The notes below the pieces were generated by a model, which saw only the letters and a program-made list of their open reading frames with translations, was not told where the DNA came from and searched no databases. From assembly GCF_058153355.1 (NCBI RefSeq), contig NZ_CM177019.1: a DNA stretch of 64,000 nt; one strand, given 5' to 3'. Below are positions 2,783-58,384 of the stretch, piece after piece. The position numbers were made by a program, and so were the translations under genes. Positions within the stretch are counted from its first letter, which is position 1; every line of letters starts with the position of its first letter.

Positions 2783-2870
2783 AACACATCAGATTTCCTG
2801 GTGTAACGAATTTTTTAAGTGCTTCTTGCTTAAGCAAGTTTAATCCCGACCCCCTCAGGGTCGGGATTTT
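2783..2870 (+). ncRNA. dsrA: DsrA small regulatory RNA (anti-H-NS, rpoS translational activator) with its own terminator hairpin
   Basis: Sequence aacacatcagatttcctggtgtaacgaattttttaagtgcttcttgcttaagcaagttt...cccgaccccctcagggtcgggattttttt matches the recalled DsrA sequence, including the GC hairpin plus U-run; located between yedP and yodD as in K-12. Confidence 0.85.
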
Positions 2871-18090: not shown

Positions 18091-19173
18091 TTAGAACTGG
18101 TAAACCAATCCTACAGCAACGATATCATCGGTAGCAACGCCAGATGCTTTCGTGAAATCGCTCTTATCAATCAGGTTGATTTTGTAATCAACAAAAGTGG
18201 ACATATTTTTGTTGAAGTAATAGGTTGCACCTACATCAATATATTCAACCAGGTCCTGATCACCCCACGCACCCAAGTCTTTTCCTTTAGATTGCAGGTA
18301 AGCAACGGACGGACGCAGACCGAAGTCGAACTGATATTGTGCAACTACTTCGAAGTTTTGTGCTTTGTTGGCAATATGGTTATTACCAAAAACAGTCATG
18401 TTCTGGGTTTCAGAATAGGTGGTAGCCAGATAGATGTTGTTCGCATCATATTTCAGACCAGCTGCCCATACTTCAGCATTTTGACCAGATGCATTCAGGC
18501 TGTTGTTACCGTAGATAACCTGATCATTAGTGCGGTCAGATTTAGCATAGGTTGCACCTACACCGAATCCTTCATACTCATAAGTAGTGGAGAAACCGAA
18601 ACCATCACCGTTAGCTTCAGTTACGTCAGTGCGGTCATTTTTACCCTGATACTGAGCAGCAAAGTTCAGACCATCAACCAGACCAAAGAAGTCGTTGTTA
18701 CGATAAGTTGCAACACCTGTGGTGCGACCAGTCATGAACACATCTGTTTGGGTCCAGGTATCGCCACCGAATTCTGGCAGAACGTCGGTCCATGCACCGA
18801 TATCGTATGCTACACCGTAGTTACGGCCATAATCGATGGAGCCGTAGTCACCGAATTTCAGGCCAGCGAAGGCAAGACGGGTTTTATCTTTGGAAGAACC
18901 TTGAGATTCAGCACGGTTGCCTTTGAATTCATATTCCCACTGACCGAAACCAGTCAGTTGATCGTTGATTTGGGTTTCGCCTTTGAAGCCCAGACGAACA
19001 TAAGTTGTGTCGCCATCATCTGCATCGTTAGAAGAGAAGTAGTGCTTAGCATTAACTTTTCCGTACAGATCCAGCTTGTTACTGTCTTTATTGTAAATCT
19101 CTGCTGCCTGAGCAGACATCGCCATCAGTACTGATGCAGCTACAGCAGAAATTGCCACTGTTAATTTTTTCAT
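18091..19173 (-). CDS. nmpC: Intact NmpC/OmpD-type general porin of the OmpC/OmpF family
   Basis: 360-aa ORF with signal peptide ([23 protein letters not shown]) and C-terminal ...VGLVYQF; closest to recalled NmpC; prophage-type cargo on the opposite strand to emrE-ybcM as in DLP12. Confidence 0.8.
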
Positions 19174-19703
19174 CGTGAGCCCTTTTATTTGAACTATTAT
19201 TTAAAAATGATGTCACTGCACCACAAATATTCATCTAATCAATGAGATTATTTCAAGATGTAAGTTTTAGTTTCTCATTTAAATTGTGAAGTAGATCCCT
19301 ATTTTTATCTGAACTGTTTCTATTGCACACAATGCATGACTATTTTGTGAACGAATATAAATTTGGTAGTCAAATTATATTAAAGGTTGTTATTTATGAT
19401 TGACTCATAATTTATTTATTTAATTTAAATAGCCTAAAAATAACCATGGAGATTATTTGCATGATATTTGTTTAGATTTGTTAATGTAGTTGAGGTGATT
19501 TTATTTAATACGCAATATAGCGCCGCTTGATATTAGTTCTATTTTTTTTTTGCGTAAGATAGATGAGACAAACTGAGACGCATAATGGTTTGCAAGGCTC
19601 TAATACTTTGATGTTGAGGATGTGATGGGGCATGTACGTGCATAGTACAATGATGTCCATGCCGGTGTGGATAATCTCCAGGCTTATCCGGTGCGCCGTA
19701 AAA

Positions 19704-20177
19704 CCCCGTCCTTCAGGGCGGGGATATAAGGCGCGGTTTTCCACCTGACCAGGTGTTTGCTGTTGTTCAATGTATTGGCGGATGACGGATATTGGCGCAC
19801 CTCCGCAGCTACTGGCAAAATAGCCGGGACTCCACAAAACGCCTTTGTAGTAATACCTGACTGCAATATCTGGTCGATCTCGTCGCAGTAATCTACCCGA
19901 TACGCCTTTGTGGCTGTTTACCAGACTGGATATCGCCAGTTTGGGAGGATAGTTAATTAACAAATGGACGTGATTCTGGTTCGCCATCCATTTCAACCAG
20001 TTCAGCTTCAAAATCAGCACATACATTTGAAAAGTAAGTGCGTAGTTTTTCTGTCGCGTCATGGTCAAAAATCTGACGTCGGTATCTGGTGACAAAGACC
20101 CGGTGAACATGCATCAGAAAAACACAGTGCCTTCCACGCCGGATATCGGTTTCTTTTTTCACAGACCAAAGTATCAT
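19704..20177 (-). pseudogene. tnpA: IS200/IS605 Y1 (HuH) transposase TnpA, split by a frameshift
   Basis: N-terminal part in ORF 19953..20177 (HCVFLMHVHRVFVTRYRRQIF...ELVEMDGEPE); HuH motif and catalytic-Tyr region in a different frame in ORF 19505..20110 (NHVHLLINYPP...SCGGAPISVIRQYIEQQQ); frame switch near 19965..19985. Confidence 0.7.
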
Positions 20178-20184
20178 TTGGCCT

Positions 20185-21393
20185 GTGAAACGACTACAAG
20201 CATTTAAATTCCAGTTAAGACCAGGTGGTCAACAGGAGCGTGAAATGAGGCGCTTCGCAGGCGCATGTCGTTTCGTTTTCAATCGTGCTCTGGCACGTCA
20301 GAATGAGAATCATGAGGCCGGTAATAAATACATCCCTTACGGGAAAATGGCTTCCTGGCTGGTTGAGTGGAAAAATGCCACTGAAACGCAATGGCTTAAA
20401 GATTCGCCCTCACAGCCATTGCAACAGTCACTGAAAGACCTTGAGCGGGCTTACAAAAACTTCTTCCAGAAGCGGGCTGCTTTTCCCCGATTCAAAAAGC
20501 GGGGACAGAATGATGCATTCCGCTACCCGCAGGGCGTTAAGCTCGATCAGGAAAACAGCCGTATTTTTCTGCCGAAACTGGGCTGGATGCGCTACCGGAA
20601 CAGCCGTCAGGTCACGGGTGTTGTGAAAAATGTCACGGTCAGCCAGTCCTGCGGTAAGTGGTACATCAGTATTCAGACAGAAAGTGAAGTATCCACTCCG
20701 GTTCATCCTTCAGCATCAATGGTCGGGCTGGATGCTGGCGTGGCTAAACTCGCCACGCTGTCAGATGGCACAGTCTTTGAGCCTGTAAACAGTTTTCAGA
20801 AAAACCAGAAGACGCTGGCGAGACTTCAGCGACAGTTAAGCCGCAAGGTCAAATTCAGCAACAACTGGCAGAAGCAGAAACGCAAAATACAGCGACTGCA
20901 TTCCCGTATCGCAAATATCCGCAGGGACTACCTTCACAAAGTCACAACGACCGTCAGCAAAAACCACGCAATGATAGTCATTGAGGATTTGAAGGTCAGC
21001 AACATGTCAAAGTCAGCAGCGGGTACGGTCAGCCAGCCGGGGCGCAATGTCCGGGCAAAATCAGGTTTAAACCGTTCGATACTGGATCAGGGCTGGTATG
21101 AAATGCGCCGCCAGCTTGAGCACAAGCAGCTCTGGAGTGGCGGTCAGGTGCTTGCTGTTCCGCCAGCGTACACAAGCCAGCGTTGCGCGTGCTGTGGTCA
21201 TACAGCGAAAGAAAACCGCCTGTCACAAAGTAAATTCAGATGCCAGGTATGTGGATATACAGCGAACGCCGATGTAAATGGCGCTCGTAACATTTTAGCG
21301 GCGGGGCACGCCGTTCTTGCCTGTGGAGAGATGGTGCAGTCAGGCCGCCCGTTGAAGCAGGAACCCACCGAAATGATTCAGGCGACAGCCTGA
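20185..21393 (+). CDS. tnpB: TnpB (IS605 OrfB), RuvC-like RNA-guided endonuclease; intact; GTG start
   Basis: 402-aa ORF; N-terminus resembles TnpB; C-terminal zinc finger CxxC...CxxC ([37 protein letters not shown]) and RuvC-like segments. Confidence 0.85.
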
Positions 21394-21432
21394 ACGTAGC
21401 AGGGATCCACGTCCTTCAGGGCGTGGAGGATG

Positions 21433-22105
21433 TCAACAAACAGGTTGAATTAACTTCGCGCCCTGGTTTTTGACATTACCCACCGCGCGCGACACAGGGT
21501 GCCAGGTGAACTGGTTTGCTGGAACACAGCCACTGGCAGAAATTTCAGAGGCTTCTTTACCGCTAATCTCTTGCCGCATCCATTCCCGCGCAGCTTCTGG
21601 CGACAGTACCAGCGGGCGGCGGTCATGAATATCTACCAGACCCTGGTCTGCTGCTGCAGTGACAATTAAAAATCCTTCGGCTTCGTCACCACGCTCAAAC
21701 GGTGTGCTACCTATCGCGGCTATAAAAACAGGTTGTCCATCAGCGCGATAGATAAAATAAGGCTGTTTTTTTGTCGCCTTCTTTTTTCCACTCAAACCAG
21801 CCATCGGCAAAACAGATTGCCCGACCATGTTGCCAGAGCGGTTTAAACATACGACTGGTTGCCGCAGTTTCTACGCGGGCGTTAATCAGCGGCGGTTTAT
21901 CCCACCATCCGGGAGCATATCCCCAGAAAACCGGATCCAGATGAAGGTGTTCATCACGTTCACTGAGCAGAAGAACTTTGGTTCCCGGCGCGACGTTGTA
22001 TCTGCCAATGGGTTCGGGATCGTAGGGAATATCGCGTTCAATATCTTCCGCGAGAAGCGCAAGGTAATCTTCACGCGTTTGGGATTGGGCAAAGCGTCCA
22101 CACAT
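21433..22105 (-). pseudogene. yedK: YedK (SRAP/HMCES-family abasic-site processing protein) disrupted by a +1 frameshift in a homopolymer run
   Basis: N-terminal 121-aa ORF (MCGRFAQSQ..., catalytic Cys2) and C-terminal 131-aa ORF overlap in different frames; 7-nt T run at 21766..21772 where the intact reading requires 6. Confidence 0.8.
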
Positions 22106-26213: not shown

Positions 26214-26623
26214 CAGACTGGGTCCTGAATCAAAGAAGGGGAGAGTAAAGACTCTTTCCAGGCATCGGCAATATTGCGCATTAATGCTTCCACTTCTTCG
26301 ACTGCGGAGACATCGTTGCGTAAATTGGCTTGCAGCAAGCGCCTGACCATATAGCTATAAAGAGCAATCAAGTTTTGGGTTAGTTCGTCTTTGCTCTCTT
26401 CATCAAGACTCACCCGCAGCCCGTTCTCAATGATGTTGATCGCTTTTGACAAAGAGACGCCTTTGCCTTGCTGATTGTTGTCCTGCATAAACAGGCGCGC
26501 TCTAACCAGTGCGCTCAGCACTCCATCAAATAGCATGGTGACCAGCTGCTGCTGGCTGGCGCTCATTACGGCGCTTTCGACGCCAATTTGTGCATAGGCC
26601 TGGGTGCCTTTTGCCGCGTACAT
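26213..26623 (-). CDS. fliS: Flagellin-specific chaperone FliS
   Basis: 136-aa ORF. Confidence 0.92.
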
Positions 26624-26638
26624 AGTTTCTCCTGAAGA

Positions 26639-28054
26639 TTATTTCGAGTTGCTATTTGAGGTGTCGAACTGCTGTGTCAGATAGCTACTGGTGGAGTTAA
26701 GCGAGTTCATTAACACATCTAATTGGGTGAACTGGGCTTTATAGCGCGTCATTAAGGTATCGATACGCTCACTGGCTGCGTTGTACTGGTCGGTCAAATT
26801 ATTCAGCGTTTTGCTGACGCCATCTTTTGCGGCCTGGATTATCCCGGTGGAAGAGAGCCAACTGGTCAGGTTGCTACTAATGCCGGTAGTTACCCCTGTA
26901 CTTTTACCGTCACCTATAAACATTTCACCGATGCCAGCGGCATCTTTTTTTAGTGCCGTTTGCAGTTTGTCGGTCGCGATTTCCAGCTTGCCGGTACTGG
27001 CATCGCTGGTAATGCCAATCTGTGCCAGCGTTTTATAGTTTGAACTGCTGTGAGTATTGGCGAGCAAGGTTTTAAGCTGAGTCTGGATGGTACGCAGTGT
27101 GGAGTCACCAAGTAATGCTCCATTACTGGAGTCCTGACTTTCTGCTCCGGCATCGACAGCGGTGTATTTGGTTAAGCTACTGAATGTATCCTGCAATGTG
27201 TTATAGGCATCCACCCATGCTTTGACTGCATTTTCAGCTTTGGATGTGTCTTTACTGATGGTCAGTGTCTGATTACCGGTGGTGACGTCATTCAGGTTGA
27301 GTGTGATATCTTCCAGCGCGTCGCTGATAGTGTTACTGCTGTTTTCAATCTCAACGTTATTGACTGTTAGTTTGGCGTTTTGCGCGGTGACGCTTTCAAT
27401 CATGCCATTGCTGCTATCACCCGACGTTCCGTTGTAACCCATAAAACTTTCCAGGGCGCTGTCGCCGCTGACGCTAAGTTTCATAGCGTTATCGTTGCCC
27501 GTATCGTTAGCGGTGATGGACAGACGATATTCGCCGTTTCCCACATTGATGATACTGGCGCTGACACCAGCTTTGGCGTTGTTAATGGCATCGCGAATGC
27601 CGGAAAGTGACGAGTTAGCCGCGCTGATATCAATCGTGACCGGATCTTTACCGCCGCCTTGCTGGATGGTCAGTACGCTATCGCTGGTAGCGATGGCAGC
27701 TTTACTGTCTTTTTGACTAATTTTTGTGGTCAGCGTTTGTGCCTGCGCCAGTTGGCTAACGCTAATGGTGAATTTCCCGGCAATCGCGCTGCCCGTGGTG
27801 GTGGCGCTGAAAGCCGATGAACTGCTGGTGGTTGAAGTGGCGGTAAATAAATCGGCTTTATTCAGTGCTGTGTTGGCTGTCTGGAAACTCTCTAGTGCAC
27901 TTTTCAGCGTCCCGTAGGCGCTCAGTTTCGCGGTGTAAGAGCTTTGCTGTTTTGATATCGGCGTCAGGGTAGATTTTTCTGCCGCCTCCAGACTGTCAAG
28001 GATGCTGCTTAAGTCCAGCCCCGACCCAACCCCAAGCGTTGAAATACTAGCCAT
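26639..28054 (-). CDS. fliD: Flagellar filament cap protein FliD
   Basis: 471-aa ORF (MASISTLGVGSGLDLSSILDSL...). Confidence 0.92.
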   Translation of the reverse strand: MASISTLGVGSGLDLSSILDSLEAAEKSTLTPISKQQSSYTAKLSAYGTLKSALESFQTANTALNKADLFTATSTTSSSSAFSATTTGSAIAGKFTISVSQLAQAQTLTTKISQKDSKAAIATSDSVLTIQQGGGKDPVTIDISAANSSLSGIRDAINNAKAGVSASIINVGNGEYRLSITANDTGNDNAMKLSVSGDSALESFMGYNGTSGDSSNGMIESVTAQNAKLTVNNVEIENSSNTISDALEDITLNLNDVTTGNQTLTISKDTSKAENAVKAWVDAYNTLQDTFSSLTKYTAVDAGAESQDSSNGALLGDSTLRTIQTQLKTLLANTHSSSNYKTLAQIGITSDASTGKLEIATDKLQTALKKDAAGIGEMFIGDGKSTGVTTGISSNLTSWLSSTGIIQAAKDGVSKTLNNLTDQYNAASERIDTLMTRYKAQFTQLDVLMNSLNSTSSYLTQQFDTSNSNSK

Positions 28055-28096
28055 ATAGATTCCTTAATCATGCGACGTATAGAACGAATATCGAGG

Positions 28097-28123
28097 TTAT
28101 CGGCGTAAGCGGGGCAAAGTTTA
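28097..28123 (-). promoter_or_regulatory. sigma28 (FliA) class 3 promoter for fliDST
   Basis: Minus-strand TAAACTTT-N11-GCCGATAA, a near-perfect match to the sigma28 consensus TAAAGTTT-N11-GCCGATAA. Confidence 0.75.
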
Positions 28124-28196
28124 CGATTTATTTTTTGGTTTAATGACACGAACAGCAACGAGGAAGGGGAGTATTTCGACCGCTAGAAAAAAATTC

Positions 28197-28223
28197 TAAA
28201 GGTTGTGAGTGACCAGACGATAA
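28197..28223 (+). promoter_or_regulatory. sigma28 (FliA) class 3 promoter for fliC
   Basis: TAAAGGTT-N11-GACGATAA about 75 bp upstream of the fliC ATG. Confidence 0.75.
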
Positions 28224-28299
28224 CAGGGTTGACGGCGACGAAGCCGAAGGGTGGAAGCCCAATACCTAAACCGTAGACTTGAAAACAGGAAAAGAAATC

Positions 28300-29781
28300 A
28301 TGGCACAAGTCATTAATACCAACAGCCTCTCGCTGATCACTCAGAACAACATCAACAAAAACCAGTCTGCGCTGTCGACGTCTATCGAGCGTCTGTCTTC
28401 CGGTCTGCGTATCAACAGCGCAAAGGATGATGCAGCGGGCCAGGCCATTGCTAACCGTTTCACCTCTAACATTAAAGGCCTGACTCAGGCTGCACGTAAC
28501 GCCAACGACGGTATTTCTCTGGCGCAGACTACTGAAGGCGCGCTGTCTGAGATTAACAACAACTTGCAGCGTGTGCGTGAGTTGACTGTACAGGCGACGA
28601 CCGGGACTAACTCTGAATCTGACCTGTCTTCTATCCAGGATGAAATCAAATCCCGTTTAAGCGAAATTGACCGTGTTTCTGGTCAGACTCAGTTTAACGG
28701 CGTGAACGTACTGGCTAAGAATGACACCCTGTCTATTCAGGTAGGTGCAAATGACGGTCAGACTATCAATATTGACCTGCAGCAGATCGATTCTCATACA
28801 CTGGGTCTGGATGGTTTCAGCGTTAAAAACAATGATGCAGTGAAAACCAGTGCTGCGGTGAATACTCTTGGGGGTGGGGCAAGTTCTGTTGCTGTCGACT
28901 TCGCAACAACCAATTTGACTGCTATCGCTGGTCTCGGTGGCGGTGCTATCAGCGAAATTGCTAAAGACGATAATGGTGATTACTACGCGCATGTTACAGG
29001 GACTACGGGTAGTACTGCTGATGGTTACTATGCTGTCGATATTGACAAGGCTAACGGTAAGGTCGCTCTGAAAGATGGTAACGTAGATACACCGACAGGT
29101 ACGCCAACGACGACAAGCACATATGACTTCACAGACGCTGGTCAAACCGTTTCCTTTGGCACTGATGCTGCAACAGCAGGTATCAGCACTGGCGCTTCTC
29201 TCGTCAAACTTCAGGATGAGAAAGGCAATGATACTGCTACTTATGCAATCAAAGCACAAGATGGCAGCCTGTATGCCGCCAACGTTGATGAGACTACCGG
29301 TAAAGTCACTGTCAAAACCGCCAGCTATACCGATGCTGACGGCAAAGCAGTGACCGATGCCGCTGTAAAACTGGGTGGCGACAATGGCAAAACCGAAATT
29401 GTTGTCGATGCTGCGTCAGGTAAAACTTACGATGCTGGTGCACTGCAAAACGCTGATCTCTCCAGTGCAACCAACACGGTAACCGCAATCCCGAACGGTA
29501 AAACCACGTCTCCTCTGGCTGCCCTTGACGACGCAATCAGCCAGATCGACAAATTCCGCTCCTCCCTCGGTGCGGTACAAAACCGTTTGGATTCCGCCGT
29601 CACCAACCTGAACAACACCACTACCAACCTGTCTGAAGCGCAGTCCCGTATTCAGGACGCCGACTATGCGACCGAAGTGTCCAACATGTCGAAAGCGCAG
29701 ATTATCCAGCAGGCCGGTAACTCCGTGCTGGCAAAAGCCAACCAGGTACCGCAGCAGGTTCTGTCTCTGCTGCAGGGTTAA
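28300..29781 (+). CDS. fliC: Flagellin FliC (493 aa from MAQVINTNSL); conserved termini with a variable central H-antigen domain
   Basis: ORF trimmed to the canonical start; N- and C-terminal regions match recalled flagellin, central region diverges from K-12. Confidence 0.93.
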   Translation: MAQVINTNSLSLITQNNINKNQSALSTSIERLSSGLRINSAKDDAAGQAIANRFTSNIKGLTQAARNANDGISLAQTTEGALSEINNNLQRVRELTVQATTGTNSESDLSSIQDEIKSRLSEIDRVSGQTQFNGVNVLAKNDTLSIQVGANDGQTINIDLQQIDSHTLGLDGFSVKNNDAVKTSAAVNTLGGGASSVAVDFATTNLTAIAGLGGGAISEIAKDDNGDYYAHVTGTTGSTADGYYAVDIDKANGKVALKDGNVDTPTGTPTTTSTYDFTDAGQTVSFGTDAATAGISTGASLVKLQDEKGNDTATYAIKAQDGSLYAANVDETTGKVTVKTASYTDADGKAVTDAAVKLGGDNGKTEIVVDAASGKTYDAGALQNADLSSATNTVTAIPNGKTTSPLAALDDAISQIDKFRSSLGAVQNRLDSAVTNLNNTTTNLSEAQSRIQDADYATEVSNMSKAQIIQQAGNSVLAKANQVPQQVLSLLQG

Positions 29782-39771: not shown

Positions 39772-39847
<76 letters not shown>

Positions 39848-39900
39848 GTTTAAAAGACATCGGCTTCAGCGGATGTCCGGCTGAAAGGCCTGAAGAATTT

Positions 39901-39974
39901 GGCGCGTTAACAAAGCGGTTATGTAGCGGATTGCAAATCCGTCTAGTCCGGTTCGACTCCGGAACGCGCCTCCA
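39901..39974 (+). tRNA. cysT: tRNA-Cys (GCA)
   Basis: ggcgcgttaacaaagcggttatgtagcggattGCAaatccgtc...ggttcgactccggaacgcgcctcca; 74 nt. Confidence 0.93.
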
Positions 39975-39986
39975 CTTTCTTCCCGA

Positions 39987-40073
39987 GCCCGGATGGTGGA
40001 ATCGGTAGACACAAGGGATTTAAAATCCCTCGGCGTTCGCGCTGTGCGGGTTCAAGTCCCGCTCCGGGTACCA
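39987..40073 (+). tRNA. leuZ: tRNA-Leu (UAA) with long variable arm
   Basis: gcccggatggtggaatcggtagacacaagggattTAAaatccc...gggttcaagtcccgctccgggtacca; 87 nt. Confidence 0.93.
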
Positions 40074-58271: not shown

Positions 58272-58297
58272 TTCTCCTGATTTCCTCAATTGCAATG

Positions 58298-58329
58298 AAC
58301 CCGATGACCTGCGCATCGGGTTTTTTATT
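58298..58329 (+). terminator. Rho-independent terminator after cheW
   Basis: cccgatg acctgcg catcggg hairpin followed by ttttttattt. Confidence 0.8.
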
Positions 58330-58356
58330 TCAGTTTCGCGGTGGGTGGCATCAGCA

Positions 58357-58384
58357 ATAAAGTTTCCCCCTTCCTTGCCGATAA
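58357..58384 (+). promoter_or_regulatory. sigma28 class 3 promoter for the tar-tap-cheRBYZ operon
   Basis: Exact consensus TAAAGTTT-N11-GCCGATAA about 30 bp upstream of the tar ATG. Confidence 0.9.

Follow-up and report, generated by a model that had tools for sequence, protein, structure and literature searches.

A non-autonomous IS609 copy in the yedK stop codon retains an intact tnpB gene and a predicted omega-RNA

The 64,000-nt stretch of DNA analysed here (the window) contains an IS200/IS605-family element with a broken transposase gene, tnpA, next to an intact tnpB gene. This raises the question whether the locus still carries a TnpB nuclease together with its omega-RNA or is simply decaying. 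The best explanation, to which a probability of about 0.8 is assigned, is a non-autonomous copy of IS609 with a dead TnpA and a retained TnpB/omega-RNA module. A preliminary description had likewise read the locus as an element of this family with a frameshifted Y1 gene, an undamaged TnpB and a locus that may encode an omega-RNA. This reading is supported, and it is strengthened by the exact ends, an empty site, the catalytic residues, RNA covariation and a suppression of synonymous changes. Every sequence feature listed in that description was found at, or within 3 nt of, the position given there.

The element at 19688-21436 is an IS609 copy of 1,749 bp, in which tnpA and tnpB are divergent (Table 1). 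Over its whole length it shares 98.6-98.8% nucleotide identity with annotated IS609 copies at ydcO and yedK, and 98.6-99.8% with copies annotated as IS609 tnpA and InsQ/TnpB. Here, the name rests on RefSeq labels, with 98.7% identity to copies whose tnpA is called 'IS200/IS605-like element IS609 family transposase'. The window copy agrees with IS609 of E. coli (insP/insQ, the ydcM locus of K-12) in gene order, in its ends and in the 402-aa TnpB.

The ends were set by comparison with the copy at the ydcO site, 34 relatives and empty sites. This places the element exactly between TTAT and CAAACAGG, inside the yedK stop codon. E. coli E7-1N7 and 536 have the empty site, which reads GGCTTAT directly followed by CAAACAGG, whereas the occupied form reads TTAT-IS-CAAACAGG; the comparison of both reveals no target duplication. 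The precise empty yedK site is present in 456 complete E. coli genomes and the junction of the right end with yedK in at least 667 genomes. Insertion occurs 3' of a specific tetranucleotide, with TTAT or TTAC left of the element in 17 relatives at independent sites. Terminal inverted repeats are absent, and the imperfect palindromes by which the family is recognised lie subterminally on the same strand at both ends. From the span proposed before (19685-21436), the right boundary stands. The left boundary lies 3 nt too far to the left, because TTAT is flank and target motif, and the true start is 19688.

Table 1. Positions of the IS609 copy's genes, ends and predicted RNA elements in the window.
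Feature	Position	Strand	Remarks
TTAT	19684..19687	+	target tetranucleotide, left cleavage site C_L; flank, outside the element; predicted TAM
Left end (LE)	19688..19747	+	G_L AAAA 19700-19703; imperfect palindrome IP_L 19704-19723
tnpA (Y1 HUH transposase) pseudogene	19748..20177	-	GTG start 20162, alternative ATG 20177
14-nt inverted repeat	20157..20190	.	spans the divergent GTG starts of tnpA and tnpB
tnpB (insQ)	20185..21393	+	intact, 402 aa, GTG start; TnpB RNA-guided endonuclease gene
Predicted omega-RNA scaffold	21267..21436	+	last ~42 tnpB codons and right end; 5' boundary approximate
Proposed omega-RNA helices	21267-21283; 21298-21314; 21320-21361 (enclosing 21328-21350); 21373-21397 (across the tnpB stop)		last helix is the right-end hairpin; long-range helix 21290-21295 with 21428-21433
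Right-end core	21403..21436	+	G_R GGAT 21403-21406; imperfect palindrome IP_R 21407-21426; C_R TCAA 21433-21436
Predicted 16-nt omega-RNA guide	21437..21452	+	CAAACAGGTTGAATTA; flank sequence, antisense to yedK at its 3' end

The near-identical palindromes noted beforehand at both ends were recovered at exactly these positions. IP_L (CCCCGTCC-TTCA-GGGCGGGG) and IP_R (CCACGTCC-TTCA-GGGCGTGG) form a direct repeat on one strand, with 90% identity, the left hairpin having a stem of 8 bp, one of them T·G, and the loop TTCA. Their core motif is found nowhere else in the 64 kb, and both hairpins are conserved in relatives, with compensatory changes. The right end of all relatives reads ...GGAGGATGTCAA, beyond which the sequences diverge. 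The TCAA ends 10 nt past the foot of the right hairpin, the same spacing as in IS608 (PMC3201880). On the left, a C_L of TTAT goes with a G_L of AAAA and a C_L of TTAC with a G_L of AAAG, and the fourth bases of C_L and G_L covary in 17 of the 18 relatives whose left end is readable in register. Covariation and TCAA spacing suggest that the guide tetranucleotides recognise the cleavage sites by the IS608 rule.

IS608 from Helicobacter pylori, the mechanistic model for TnpA, is also similar in its subterminal top-strand hairpins, in the 4-nt guides 5' of each of them, in TCAA as right cleavage site and in insertion 3' of TTAY without duplication. It differs in the target (TTAC instead of TTAT), in G_L (AAAG instead of AAAA) and in the left cleavage site, which lies 19 nt from the hairpin foot compared to 16 nt here. 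Furthermore, tnpA and tnpB are co-directional in IS608 and divergent in the window copy. The element would have entered the yedK stop codon in single-stranded form, on the 3' side of TTAT. The cis signals for the peel-and-paste reaction of TnpA are all kept, namely both top-strand hairpins, G_L and G_R, and the cleavage sites TTAT and TCAA, so that TnpA from another copy could still mobilise the element.

The partner transposase gene is indeed frameshifted, as had been noticed earlier. One extra T (+1) is present at 19974-19975, where the window has GACGTGATTCTGG and three further copies have GACGTGA-TCTGG, so that the HUH motif and the catalytic Tyr are no longer in one frame. Without this T the product has 138 aa, the length of the intact TnpA of a Serratia or Yersinia relative, scores 140 bits on the NCBIfam model transpos_IS200 (cut-off 55) and carries the HVH motif and the RQYIEQQ tyrosine. 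In addition, tnpA lacks the stop codon of relatives from other genera, their TAG being CAG at 19745-19747. This loss is common to the E. coli copies, whereas the +1 frameshift is private to the window copy among those sampled and distinguishes it from IS609 elsewhere. Read from the gene sequence, the transposase of the window copy is dead, the frameshift coming on top of the stop-codon loss.

For TnpB, the full-length protein of 402 aa with a RuvC core and a CxxC...CxxC zinc finger that had been described is confirmed by alignment with ISDra2 TnpB and by domain models. The same ORF is called by RefSeq in other E. coli copies, and the protein has 0 amino-acid differences from that of the copy in E. 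coli R32_14_1F, annotated as WP_176263772.1. Pfam assigns HTH_OrfB_IS605, OrfB_IS605 and Cas12f1-like_TNB, and the NCBIfam model guided_TnpB gives 383 bits (cut-off 100). The protein is colinear with TnpB of ISDra2 from Deinococcus radiodurans (PDB 8bf8, 8exa, 8h1j). In the full-length alignment with 8bf8 (E=2e-55), the triad D183/E267/D363 falls on D191/E278/D361, which shows that the RuvC catalytic residues of a characterised TnpB are conserved here. The zinc finger is formed by the cysteine pairs C334/C337 and C353/C356. All ten residues that serve as activity criterion in PMC12781874 are present (10/10), at a constant offset of +2. The dN/dS of tnpB against relatives is 0.06-0.16, and pN/pS is 0.26 for 10 E. 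coli copies from five sites. For ISDra2 TnpB nuclease activity has been demonstrated, whereas the TnpB of the window is known here from its sequence.

The preliminary description had proposed a search for an omega-RNA near 21250..21436, and a covarying structure on the + strand was found there. In the alignment used (A2), the 52 proposed pairs are 92% paired, in comparison to 40-50% when the partners are slid. Compensatory changes occur at 19 pairs against 7.8±1.7 after shuffling, and none of 500 shuffles reaches 19. G·U cells number 241 and A·C cells 37, which favours the + strand, the sense strand of tnpB. Within the same region dS falls three- to four-fold, from ~1.3 to 0.35-0.58 in tnpB codons 361-402, i.e., the last ~40 codons, and the invariant RNA columns are all intact in the window copy. 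These data support a conserved RNA structure on the tnpB sense strand at ~21267-21436, a statement that concerns structure and not expression.

At gathering thresholds, Rfam has no match within the element. Below threshold, three families match on the + strand, exactly over the 3' end of tnpB and the element's right end, namely HgcC (RF00062, 21.9 against a threshold of 50), sot0042 (RF02656, 17 against 88) and RAGATH-18 (RF03064, 25.4 against 44.9). These weak matches include the motifs CCUGUGGAG...GAAGCAGGAA and hairpin-GAGGAUGUCA. HgcC and sot0042 have been tied to TnpB RNAs (PMC4615843), and so has RAGATH-18 (PMC11061315). Since the scores are far under the gathering thresholds, the IS609 RNA is not a curated member of these families, and the matches are taken as leads and not as membership.

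A further model is provided by the omega-RNA (reRNA) of ISDra2, in which the 3' end of tnpB and the right end precede a guide derived from the flank, the arrangement predicted here. The architecture is shared and the RNA sequences are unrelated; the ISDra2 motif is TTGAT as opposed to the predicted TTAT. The last ~16 nt of the ISDra2 RNA are derived from the flank (PMC8612924), and by this rule the predicted guide of the window copy would be the 16 nt following the right end. In empty sites, CAAACAGGTTGAATTA stands directly 3' of TTAT. The transposon target site suggests TTAT as the predicted target-adjacent motif of TnpB. Elsewhere in the window, a site resembling TTAT plus guide at 18164-18183, within a porin gene, has three mismatches, one of them at guide position 4, and was attributed to chance.

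Following the mechanism established for the family (PMC8612924 and 10.1101/2023.03.14.532601), the tnpB transcript would yield both the 402-aa nuclease and an omega-RNA of ~150-190 nt, made from the 3' end of tnpB together with the right end and finishing in ~16 nt of the flank. The complex of TnpB and this RNA would recognise and cut TTAT followed by CAAACAGGTTGAATTA, the sequence of the unoccupied yedK site. The cut would then be repaired from an occupied copy and the element regained, amounting to retention or homing. The occupied site would itself be protected because TCAA replaces TTAT.

The preliminary description had singled out the loss of TnpA with retention of TnpB. This state is not special, since tnpA is defective in 11 of 12 sampled E. 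coli IS609 copies, and in the family as a whole a tnpA lies close to only ~25% of tnpB genes (10.1101/2023.03.14.532601); tnpB without tnpA is the usual state. IS609-like sequence is present in 5,015 of 5,426 complete E. coli genomes, at ~11,000 places, and the several polymorphic sites include the yedK stop codon. Others are ydcO, a TetR gene by ytfB, yajI by nrdR, and plasmids, each copy having a different guide. An ancient, fixed and domesticated insertion in yedK was considered and rejected on account of this polymorphism and of the other sites. Among the sampled copies, four independent inactivating events fall into the 414 nt of tnpA and two into the 1,206 nt of tnpB. The latter are a 97-nt deletion and a frameshift, leaving tnpB broken in 2 of 13 copies. 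Within E. coli, N/S counts of tnpB and of the tnpA remnants do not differ (Fisher P=1.0). Stronger purifying selection on tnpB than on tnpA was therefore not upheld by N/S, the one hint being the lesion count, with P ~0.04 as our own binomial estimate under equal per-base rates. Given this likeness to the tnpA remnants, selection on tnpB in place is not proven.

These figures bear on an unlikely alternative, according to which the whole element is decaying as an inert relic, tnpB being open merely because little time has passed, silenced by its GTG start and a weak -10 box and forming no TnpB-RNA complex. Both tnpA and tnpB start with GTG in Escherichia copies and with ATG in relatives, and the -10-like box ~7 nt upstream of tnpB is TATCAT (20172-20177) in place of the TATAAT of relatives. 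These changes are specific to Escherichia copies and suggest that activity may be low. A scan for sigma-70 promoters and terminators yielded no promoter on the + strand, with counts within the shuffle expectation, and was uninformative; taken at face value, the lack of a sigma-70-like site on this strand means that the TnpB level may be very low. Inertness would also fit the absence of IS609 transposition in mutation-accumulation lines of E. coli K-12 (PMC5009759), the two broken tnpB copies and the N/S pattern shared with tnpA. It is opposed by the excess of inactivating events in tnpA, by the pN/pS of tnpB across five sites and by the intact catalytic and zinc-binding residues and invariant RNA columns of the window copy. 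A TnpB called 'IS609' has been purified and tested for trans-cleavage only, where it was not the best performer (PMC12781874), and our literature search found no paper showing activity of the native E. coli IS609 TnpB.

With low probability, the frameshift in tnpA is an artefact of sequencing or assembly; the copy would then have an uninterrupted tnpA frame like other E. coli IS609 elements. Such an error would be in keeping with a lesion that consists of a single extra T (T to TT) and is absent from the other sampled copies, and the adjoining yedK also has a single extra T, in a T6 run (21766-21772). Nevertheless, tnpA would still lack the stop codon of relatives and read through the left end if the frameshift were removed, and it is independently inactivated in most other copies. 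An error-ridden assembly as a general source of frameshifts was rejected, since outside the hypervariable fliD-fliC region only about a dozen indels, several of them at short homopolymer runs, separate the window from its nearest E. coli genome over ~45 kb, so sequence errors are not pervasive. Far less probable still is a domesticated TnpB that no longer serves the transposon, either as an RNA-guided regulator resembling TldR or through antisense control of yedK. TldR is a nuclease-dead, exapted homologue of TnpB, whereas the RuvC triad is intact here. The retention of tnpB with loss of tnpA in most E. coli copies, and the antisense orientation of the guide, and of any read-through transcript, relative to the yedK 3' end, would suit such an exaptation. 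However, neither transposon end is damaged, the yedK site varies among genomes between empty and occupied in the numbers given above, and copies at several unrelated sites and on plasmids carry a different guide each time.

For the non-autonomous IS609 copy with a retained TnpB/omega-RNA module, much is already known. The IS is named, the function of the family has been known since 2021, and the gene carries a fitting label. The expectation that such a nuclease would be annotated only as a transposase was not confirmed, as RefSeq/PGAP gives 'RNA-guided endonuclease InsQ/TnpB family protein' in nearly all of the records inspected and 'transposase' in one. The importance of the locus beyond good annotation is therefore slight.

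It is a speculative and rather unlikely idea that selection keeps TnpB and the omega-RNA of E. coli IS609, though there is almost no working TnpA, for a role independent of TnpA. If this were true, the role could be homing into vacant TTAT sites, as in the 456 empty yedK alleles, when recombination joins occupied and empty alleles. Alternatively, it could lie in influencing the convergent host gene that has the element in its stop codon (yedK or ydcO). What is useful here is the base-exact map of the window copy, with its ends, TTAT motif, guide and proposed helices, together with an empty-site control that is present in natural E. coli genomes and the finding that E. coli IS609 nearly always keeps tnpB while losing tnpA in several independent ways. 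Taken together, these make IS609 of E. coli a convenient native system in which retention and homing by TnpB could be tested.

The element beside yedK is a copy of IS609, a member of the IS200/IS605 family. In a megablast search of 19685-21436 against complete E. coli genomes, 5,015 of 5,426 matched, at a median of two and a maximum of nine places per genome, and 573 of the matching places are plasmid-borne. The assignment, made on sequence identity, follows from the annotation of these copies, whose tnpA is labeled 'IS200/IS605 family transposase' (in some records 'IS609 family transposase') and whose insQ is labeled 'RNA-guided endonuclease InsQ/TnpB family protein'. The expectation of the preliminary description that such a nuclease is typically annotated only as a transposase is therefore not borne out. 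The element is known, of a known kind and already described by public annotation, and in this sense ordinary; the sequence observation itself is confirmed, and its interpretation as a nuclease locus with a dead transposase is supported. The closest copies, from E. coli 2017.17.01CC and R32_14_1F, are 99.5-99.8% identical to the window copy, and their TnpB (WP_176263772.1) is identical in amino-acid sequence to the product of the window ORF.

The ends were set by aligning the window copy with the ydcO copy and 34 relatives of other genera, where similarity begins at TTATCC (19684) and halts after GGAGGATGTCAA (21436). Furthermore, a synthetic empty site, 100 nt of left flank joined to 100 nt of right flank, was matched end to end in 456 genomes; in E7-1N7 and strain 536 it reads ...CTCCAGGCTTAT / CAAACAGGTTGAATTAAC... 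across the insertion point. Since alignments and empty sites agree on the boundaries, exact ends can be given (see table), which retains the right end proposed previously and moves the left start from 19685 to 19688. Comparison of empty and occupied sites shows that the element inserted 3' of TTAT and duplicated no target sequence. At least 667 genomes contain the junction of right end and yedK, and together with the empty ones this makes the site polymorphic in E. coli.

The insertion point is the yedK stop codon. YedK ends in ...QPV-stop at empty sites and in ...QPVC-stop at occupied ones, the TGA being derived from the terminal TCA of the element. The ydcO copy, too, has a 4-nt overlap with the stop codon of the gene convergent to it. 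In the window, yedK (an SOS-response-associated peptidase gene) is frameshifted by a change from T6 to T7 in comparison to two E. coli genomes; yedK and tnpA hold two +1 T frameshifts inside 1.8 kb.

Features of the IS609 copy and other features of the window
Feature	Position	Strand	Details
DsrA sRNA	2783-2869		Rfam, gathering level
ompC-like porin gene	18091-19173		
Guide-like site in porin gene	18164-18183	+	TTATCAATCAGGTTGATTTT
IS609 element	19688-21436		1,749 bp (1,748 bp minus the extra T); alignments and empty sites
Left imperfect palindrome	19704-19723		20 nt; CCCCGTCC-TTCA-GGGCGGGG
14-nt inverted repeat	20157-20190		TTTCACAGACCAAA / TTTGGCCTGTGAAA; spans divergent start codons of tnpA and tnpB
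tnpB ORF	20185-21393	+	402 aa; GTG start
sot0042 match	21266-21427	+	E=0.16, sub-gathering
RAGATH-18 match	21320-21363	+	E=0.074, sub-gathering
HgcC match	21330-21449	+	E=0.029, sub-gathering
RNA parts	21290-21295 with 21428-21433 (long-range helix)		also hairpin across tnpB stop codon; right-end hairpin
Right imperfect palindrome	21407-21426		20 nt; CCACGTCC-TTCA-GGGCGTGG
IS609/yedK stop overlap	21433-21440		around 1598-1605 in two other compared loci (L070, L071)
yedK	21433-22105	minus	T run at 21766-21772
Predicted guide	21437-21452		CAAACAGGTTGAATTA
fliD-fliC	26600-28800		
Three tRNAs	39772-40070		Rfam, gathering level
C0465 sRNA	58291-58368		Rfam, gathering level

As previously described, TnpB is full length. 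The intact ORF displays the Pfam domains HTH_OrfB_IS605, OrfB_IS605 and Cas12f1-like_TNB and scores 383 bits on NCBIfam guided_TnpB (cut-off 100). Residues 3-376 align with ISDra2 TnpB (8bf8, 8exa; E=2e-55), and this comparison with a characterized TnpB, a check proposed beforehand, recovers both the RuvC-like core, as a conserved D-E-D (D183, E267 and D363, corresponding to D191, E278 and D361 of ISDra2), and the CxxC...CxxC zinc finger, whose pairs C334/C337 and C353/C356 coincide with the ISDra2 cysteines. For ISDra2, cleavage requires D191 (PMC8612924). All ten residues of the activity criterion of PMC12781874 are present at a constant offset of +2. Eighteen relatives are colinear with the window tnpB at 402 codons, with dN/dS to the window of 0.06-0.16, and pN/pS within a set of ten E. 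coli copies amounts to 0.26. Thus, tnpB is intact and, judged by these residues, TnpB looks catalytically competent.

Just upstream of tnpB, two overlapping ORF fragments on the minus strand jointly resemble a Y1 HUH transposase. In agreement with the frameshift noted before, an additional T at 19974-19975, absent from three other E. coli copies, cuts off the HVH motif from the tyrosine of RQYIEQQ, the catalytic residue; its removal gives a 138-aa product that scores 140 bits on the NCBIfam model transpos_IS200, where the cut-off is 55. This T may be a single-base error. A pervasive assembly artefact as its source is ruled out by a count of indels relative to the closest E. coli genome: outside the hypervariable fliD-fliC stretch, there are roughly a dozen over ~45 kb. 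Furthermore, TnpA of Serratia, Yersinia, Morganella and other genera ends in ...EQQQTPG/S-stop, and in the window, as in most E. coli copies, CAG replaces the stop codon, so that the frame would run through the left end; RefSeq marks such stop-less copies incomplete.

The loss of TnpA with retention of TnpB had been pointed out for this element. This state is not special: some 75% of tnpB genes lack a neighboring tnpA (10.1101/2023.03.14.532601), and of 12 IS609 copies sampled in E. coli at five sites, 11 have a defective tnpA, the independent lesions being the window frameshift, an IS1 insertion, two distinct nonsense codons and the stop-codon loss. Of 13 copies sampled for tnpB, 11 have kept the gene intact; the other two are a frameshifted plasmid copy and that of E. 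coli PEC411. Independent lesions number four in the 414-nt tnpA vs. two in the 1,206-nt tnpB, for which we calculate a binomial P of ~0.04 from this small sample; this is a hint that tnpB is preferentially retained. N/S counts among the E. coli copies did not distinguish the two genes. In PEC411 (locus L075), 97 nt are deleted between two GTGGAG repeats at the tnpB 3' end. The deletion takes out the right-end hairpin together with the core of the omega-RNA, spares the terminal 12 nt of the right end and truncates TnpB at a stop in codon 388.

The near-identical imperfect palindromes reported for both ends are present as direct copies on the same strand, and their core has no further occurrence within the 64-kb window. 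For IS608, TnpA cleaves the left end 3' of TTAC and the right end after TCAA, 10 nt past the right hairpin foot, both sites being read by 4-nt guides directly 5' of each hairpin, with AAAG as the left guide G_L (PMC3201880). Similarly, TCAA of the window copy ends exactly 10 nt past the right hairpin foot, whereas its target is TTAT and its G_L is AAAA. In 17 of 18 relatives at independent sites with the left end readable in register, TTAT occurs together with AAAA and TTAC with AAAG; the sole exception, Escherichia sp. MOD1-EC7003 (L004), combines TTAC with AAAA. This covariation is the pattern expected of cleavage-site recognition by base pairing. Since all TnpA-type cis signals are intact, TnpA provided in trans could in principle still mobilize the copy.

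In other E. coli genomes, IS609 copies interrupt a TetR/AcrR regulator gene beside ytfB (L076/L077) and a SadB/YajI lipoprotein gene beside nrdR (L078/L080). Such copies inside host genes indicate that the element was formerly mobile in E. coli, despite the present defective tnpA. In K-12 mutation-accumulation lines no IS609 movement was seen (PMC5009759).

For the RNA, no Rfam family matched the element at its gathering threshold. At a permissive threshold, HgcC, sot0042 and RAGATH-18, which are linked to tnpB 3' ends or TnpB guide RNAs (PMC4615843; PMC11061315), overlap the tnpB 3' end and the right end. The IS609 RNA has in common with them the motifs CCUGUGGAG...GAAGCAGGAA and hairpin-GAGGAUGUCA, which suggests a distant relationship between the enterobacterial IS609-type RNA and these families, which are curated separately.

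For 27 distinct elements, the 190 nt that precede the right-end boundary were aligned, and the RNAalifold consensus plus three helices from a single-sequence fold was tested. For the 52 pairs of this structure, pairing holds in 92% of cells vs. 40-50% with partners slid by 1-3 columns, and 19 pairs show compensatory changes vs. 7.8±1.7 in shuffles (reached by 0 of 500). Several covarying pairs include synonymous third positions, e.g., GCG/CAC vs. GCA/CAT. The excess of G·U (241) over A·C cells (37) indicates that the structure suits the + strand better than its complement (fit 92 vs. 77%), and mean pairwise dS drops from ~1.3 gene-wide to 0.58 and 0.35 in windows over codons 361-402. Taken together, covariation, strand asymmetry and the dS drop speak for a conserved structured RNA that spans roughly 21267-21436, in line with the candidate omega-RNA locus proposed earlier. 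Its long-range helix ends just before the predicted guide. RNA-specific evidence comes solely from the upstream helices, since TnpA, acting on single-stranded DNA, makes use of the right-end hairpin as well.

By the ISDra2 rule, the last ~16 nt of the RNA come from the flank (PMC8612924), and the guide would be CAAACAGGTTGAATTA. Since this sequence directly follows TTAT in empty sites, the predicted target is the vacant yedK site; at the occupied site, TCAA takes the motif position. A site in the porin gene resembles TTAT plus the guide target except for mismatches at three positions of the guide, 4, 13 and 16. Such matches are expected 0.01 times per window; the site is probably due to chance, and its cutting is unlikely because of the mismatch early in the guide.

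In other parts of the window, fliD-fliC shows ~93% identity and many indels vs. the closest E. coli genome, with flanks at ~98.7-99%. That genome bears IS1 insertions and internal stops in fliA and dgcQ. The DsrA, C0465 and tRNA matches (Gly, Cys and Leu by the annotation of the same genome) are ordinary.

TnpB-RNA complexes cut the donor joint or the vacant site, after which the transposon is restored by homologous repair (PMC8612924; 10.1101/2023.03.14.532601). By this mechanism, IS609 TnpB with its omega-RNA would cleave the vacant TTAT site, and homologous repair would then restore the element. On sequence grounds, the window copy has everything that this family mechanism requires; that TnpB is expressed, uses TTAT as its motif and cleaves is what we infer. 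Regarding expression, both genes start with GTG in Escherichia copies and with ATG in other genera, and the -10-like box is TATCAT in the former and TATAAT, ~7 nt upstream of the ATG, in relatives. A promoter scan found no + strand promoter for the element. These changes and the inverted repeat may indicate that expression is attenuated, or that an operator or hairpin is shared. The base-exact map of this copy allows the native E. coli IS609 TnpB to be tested.
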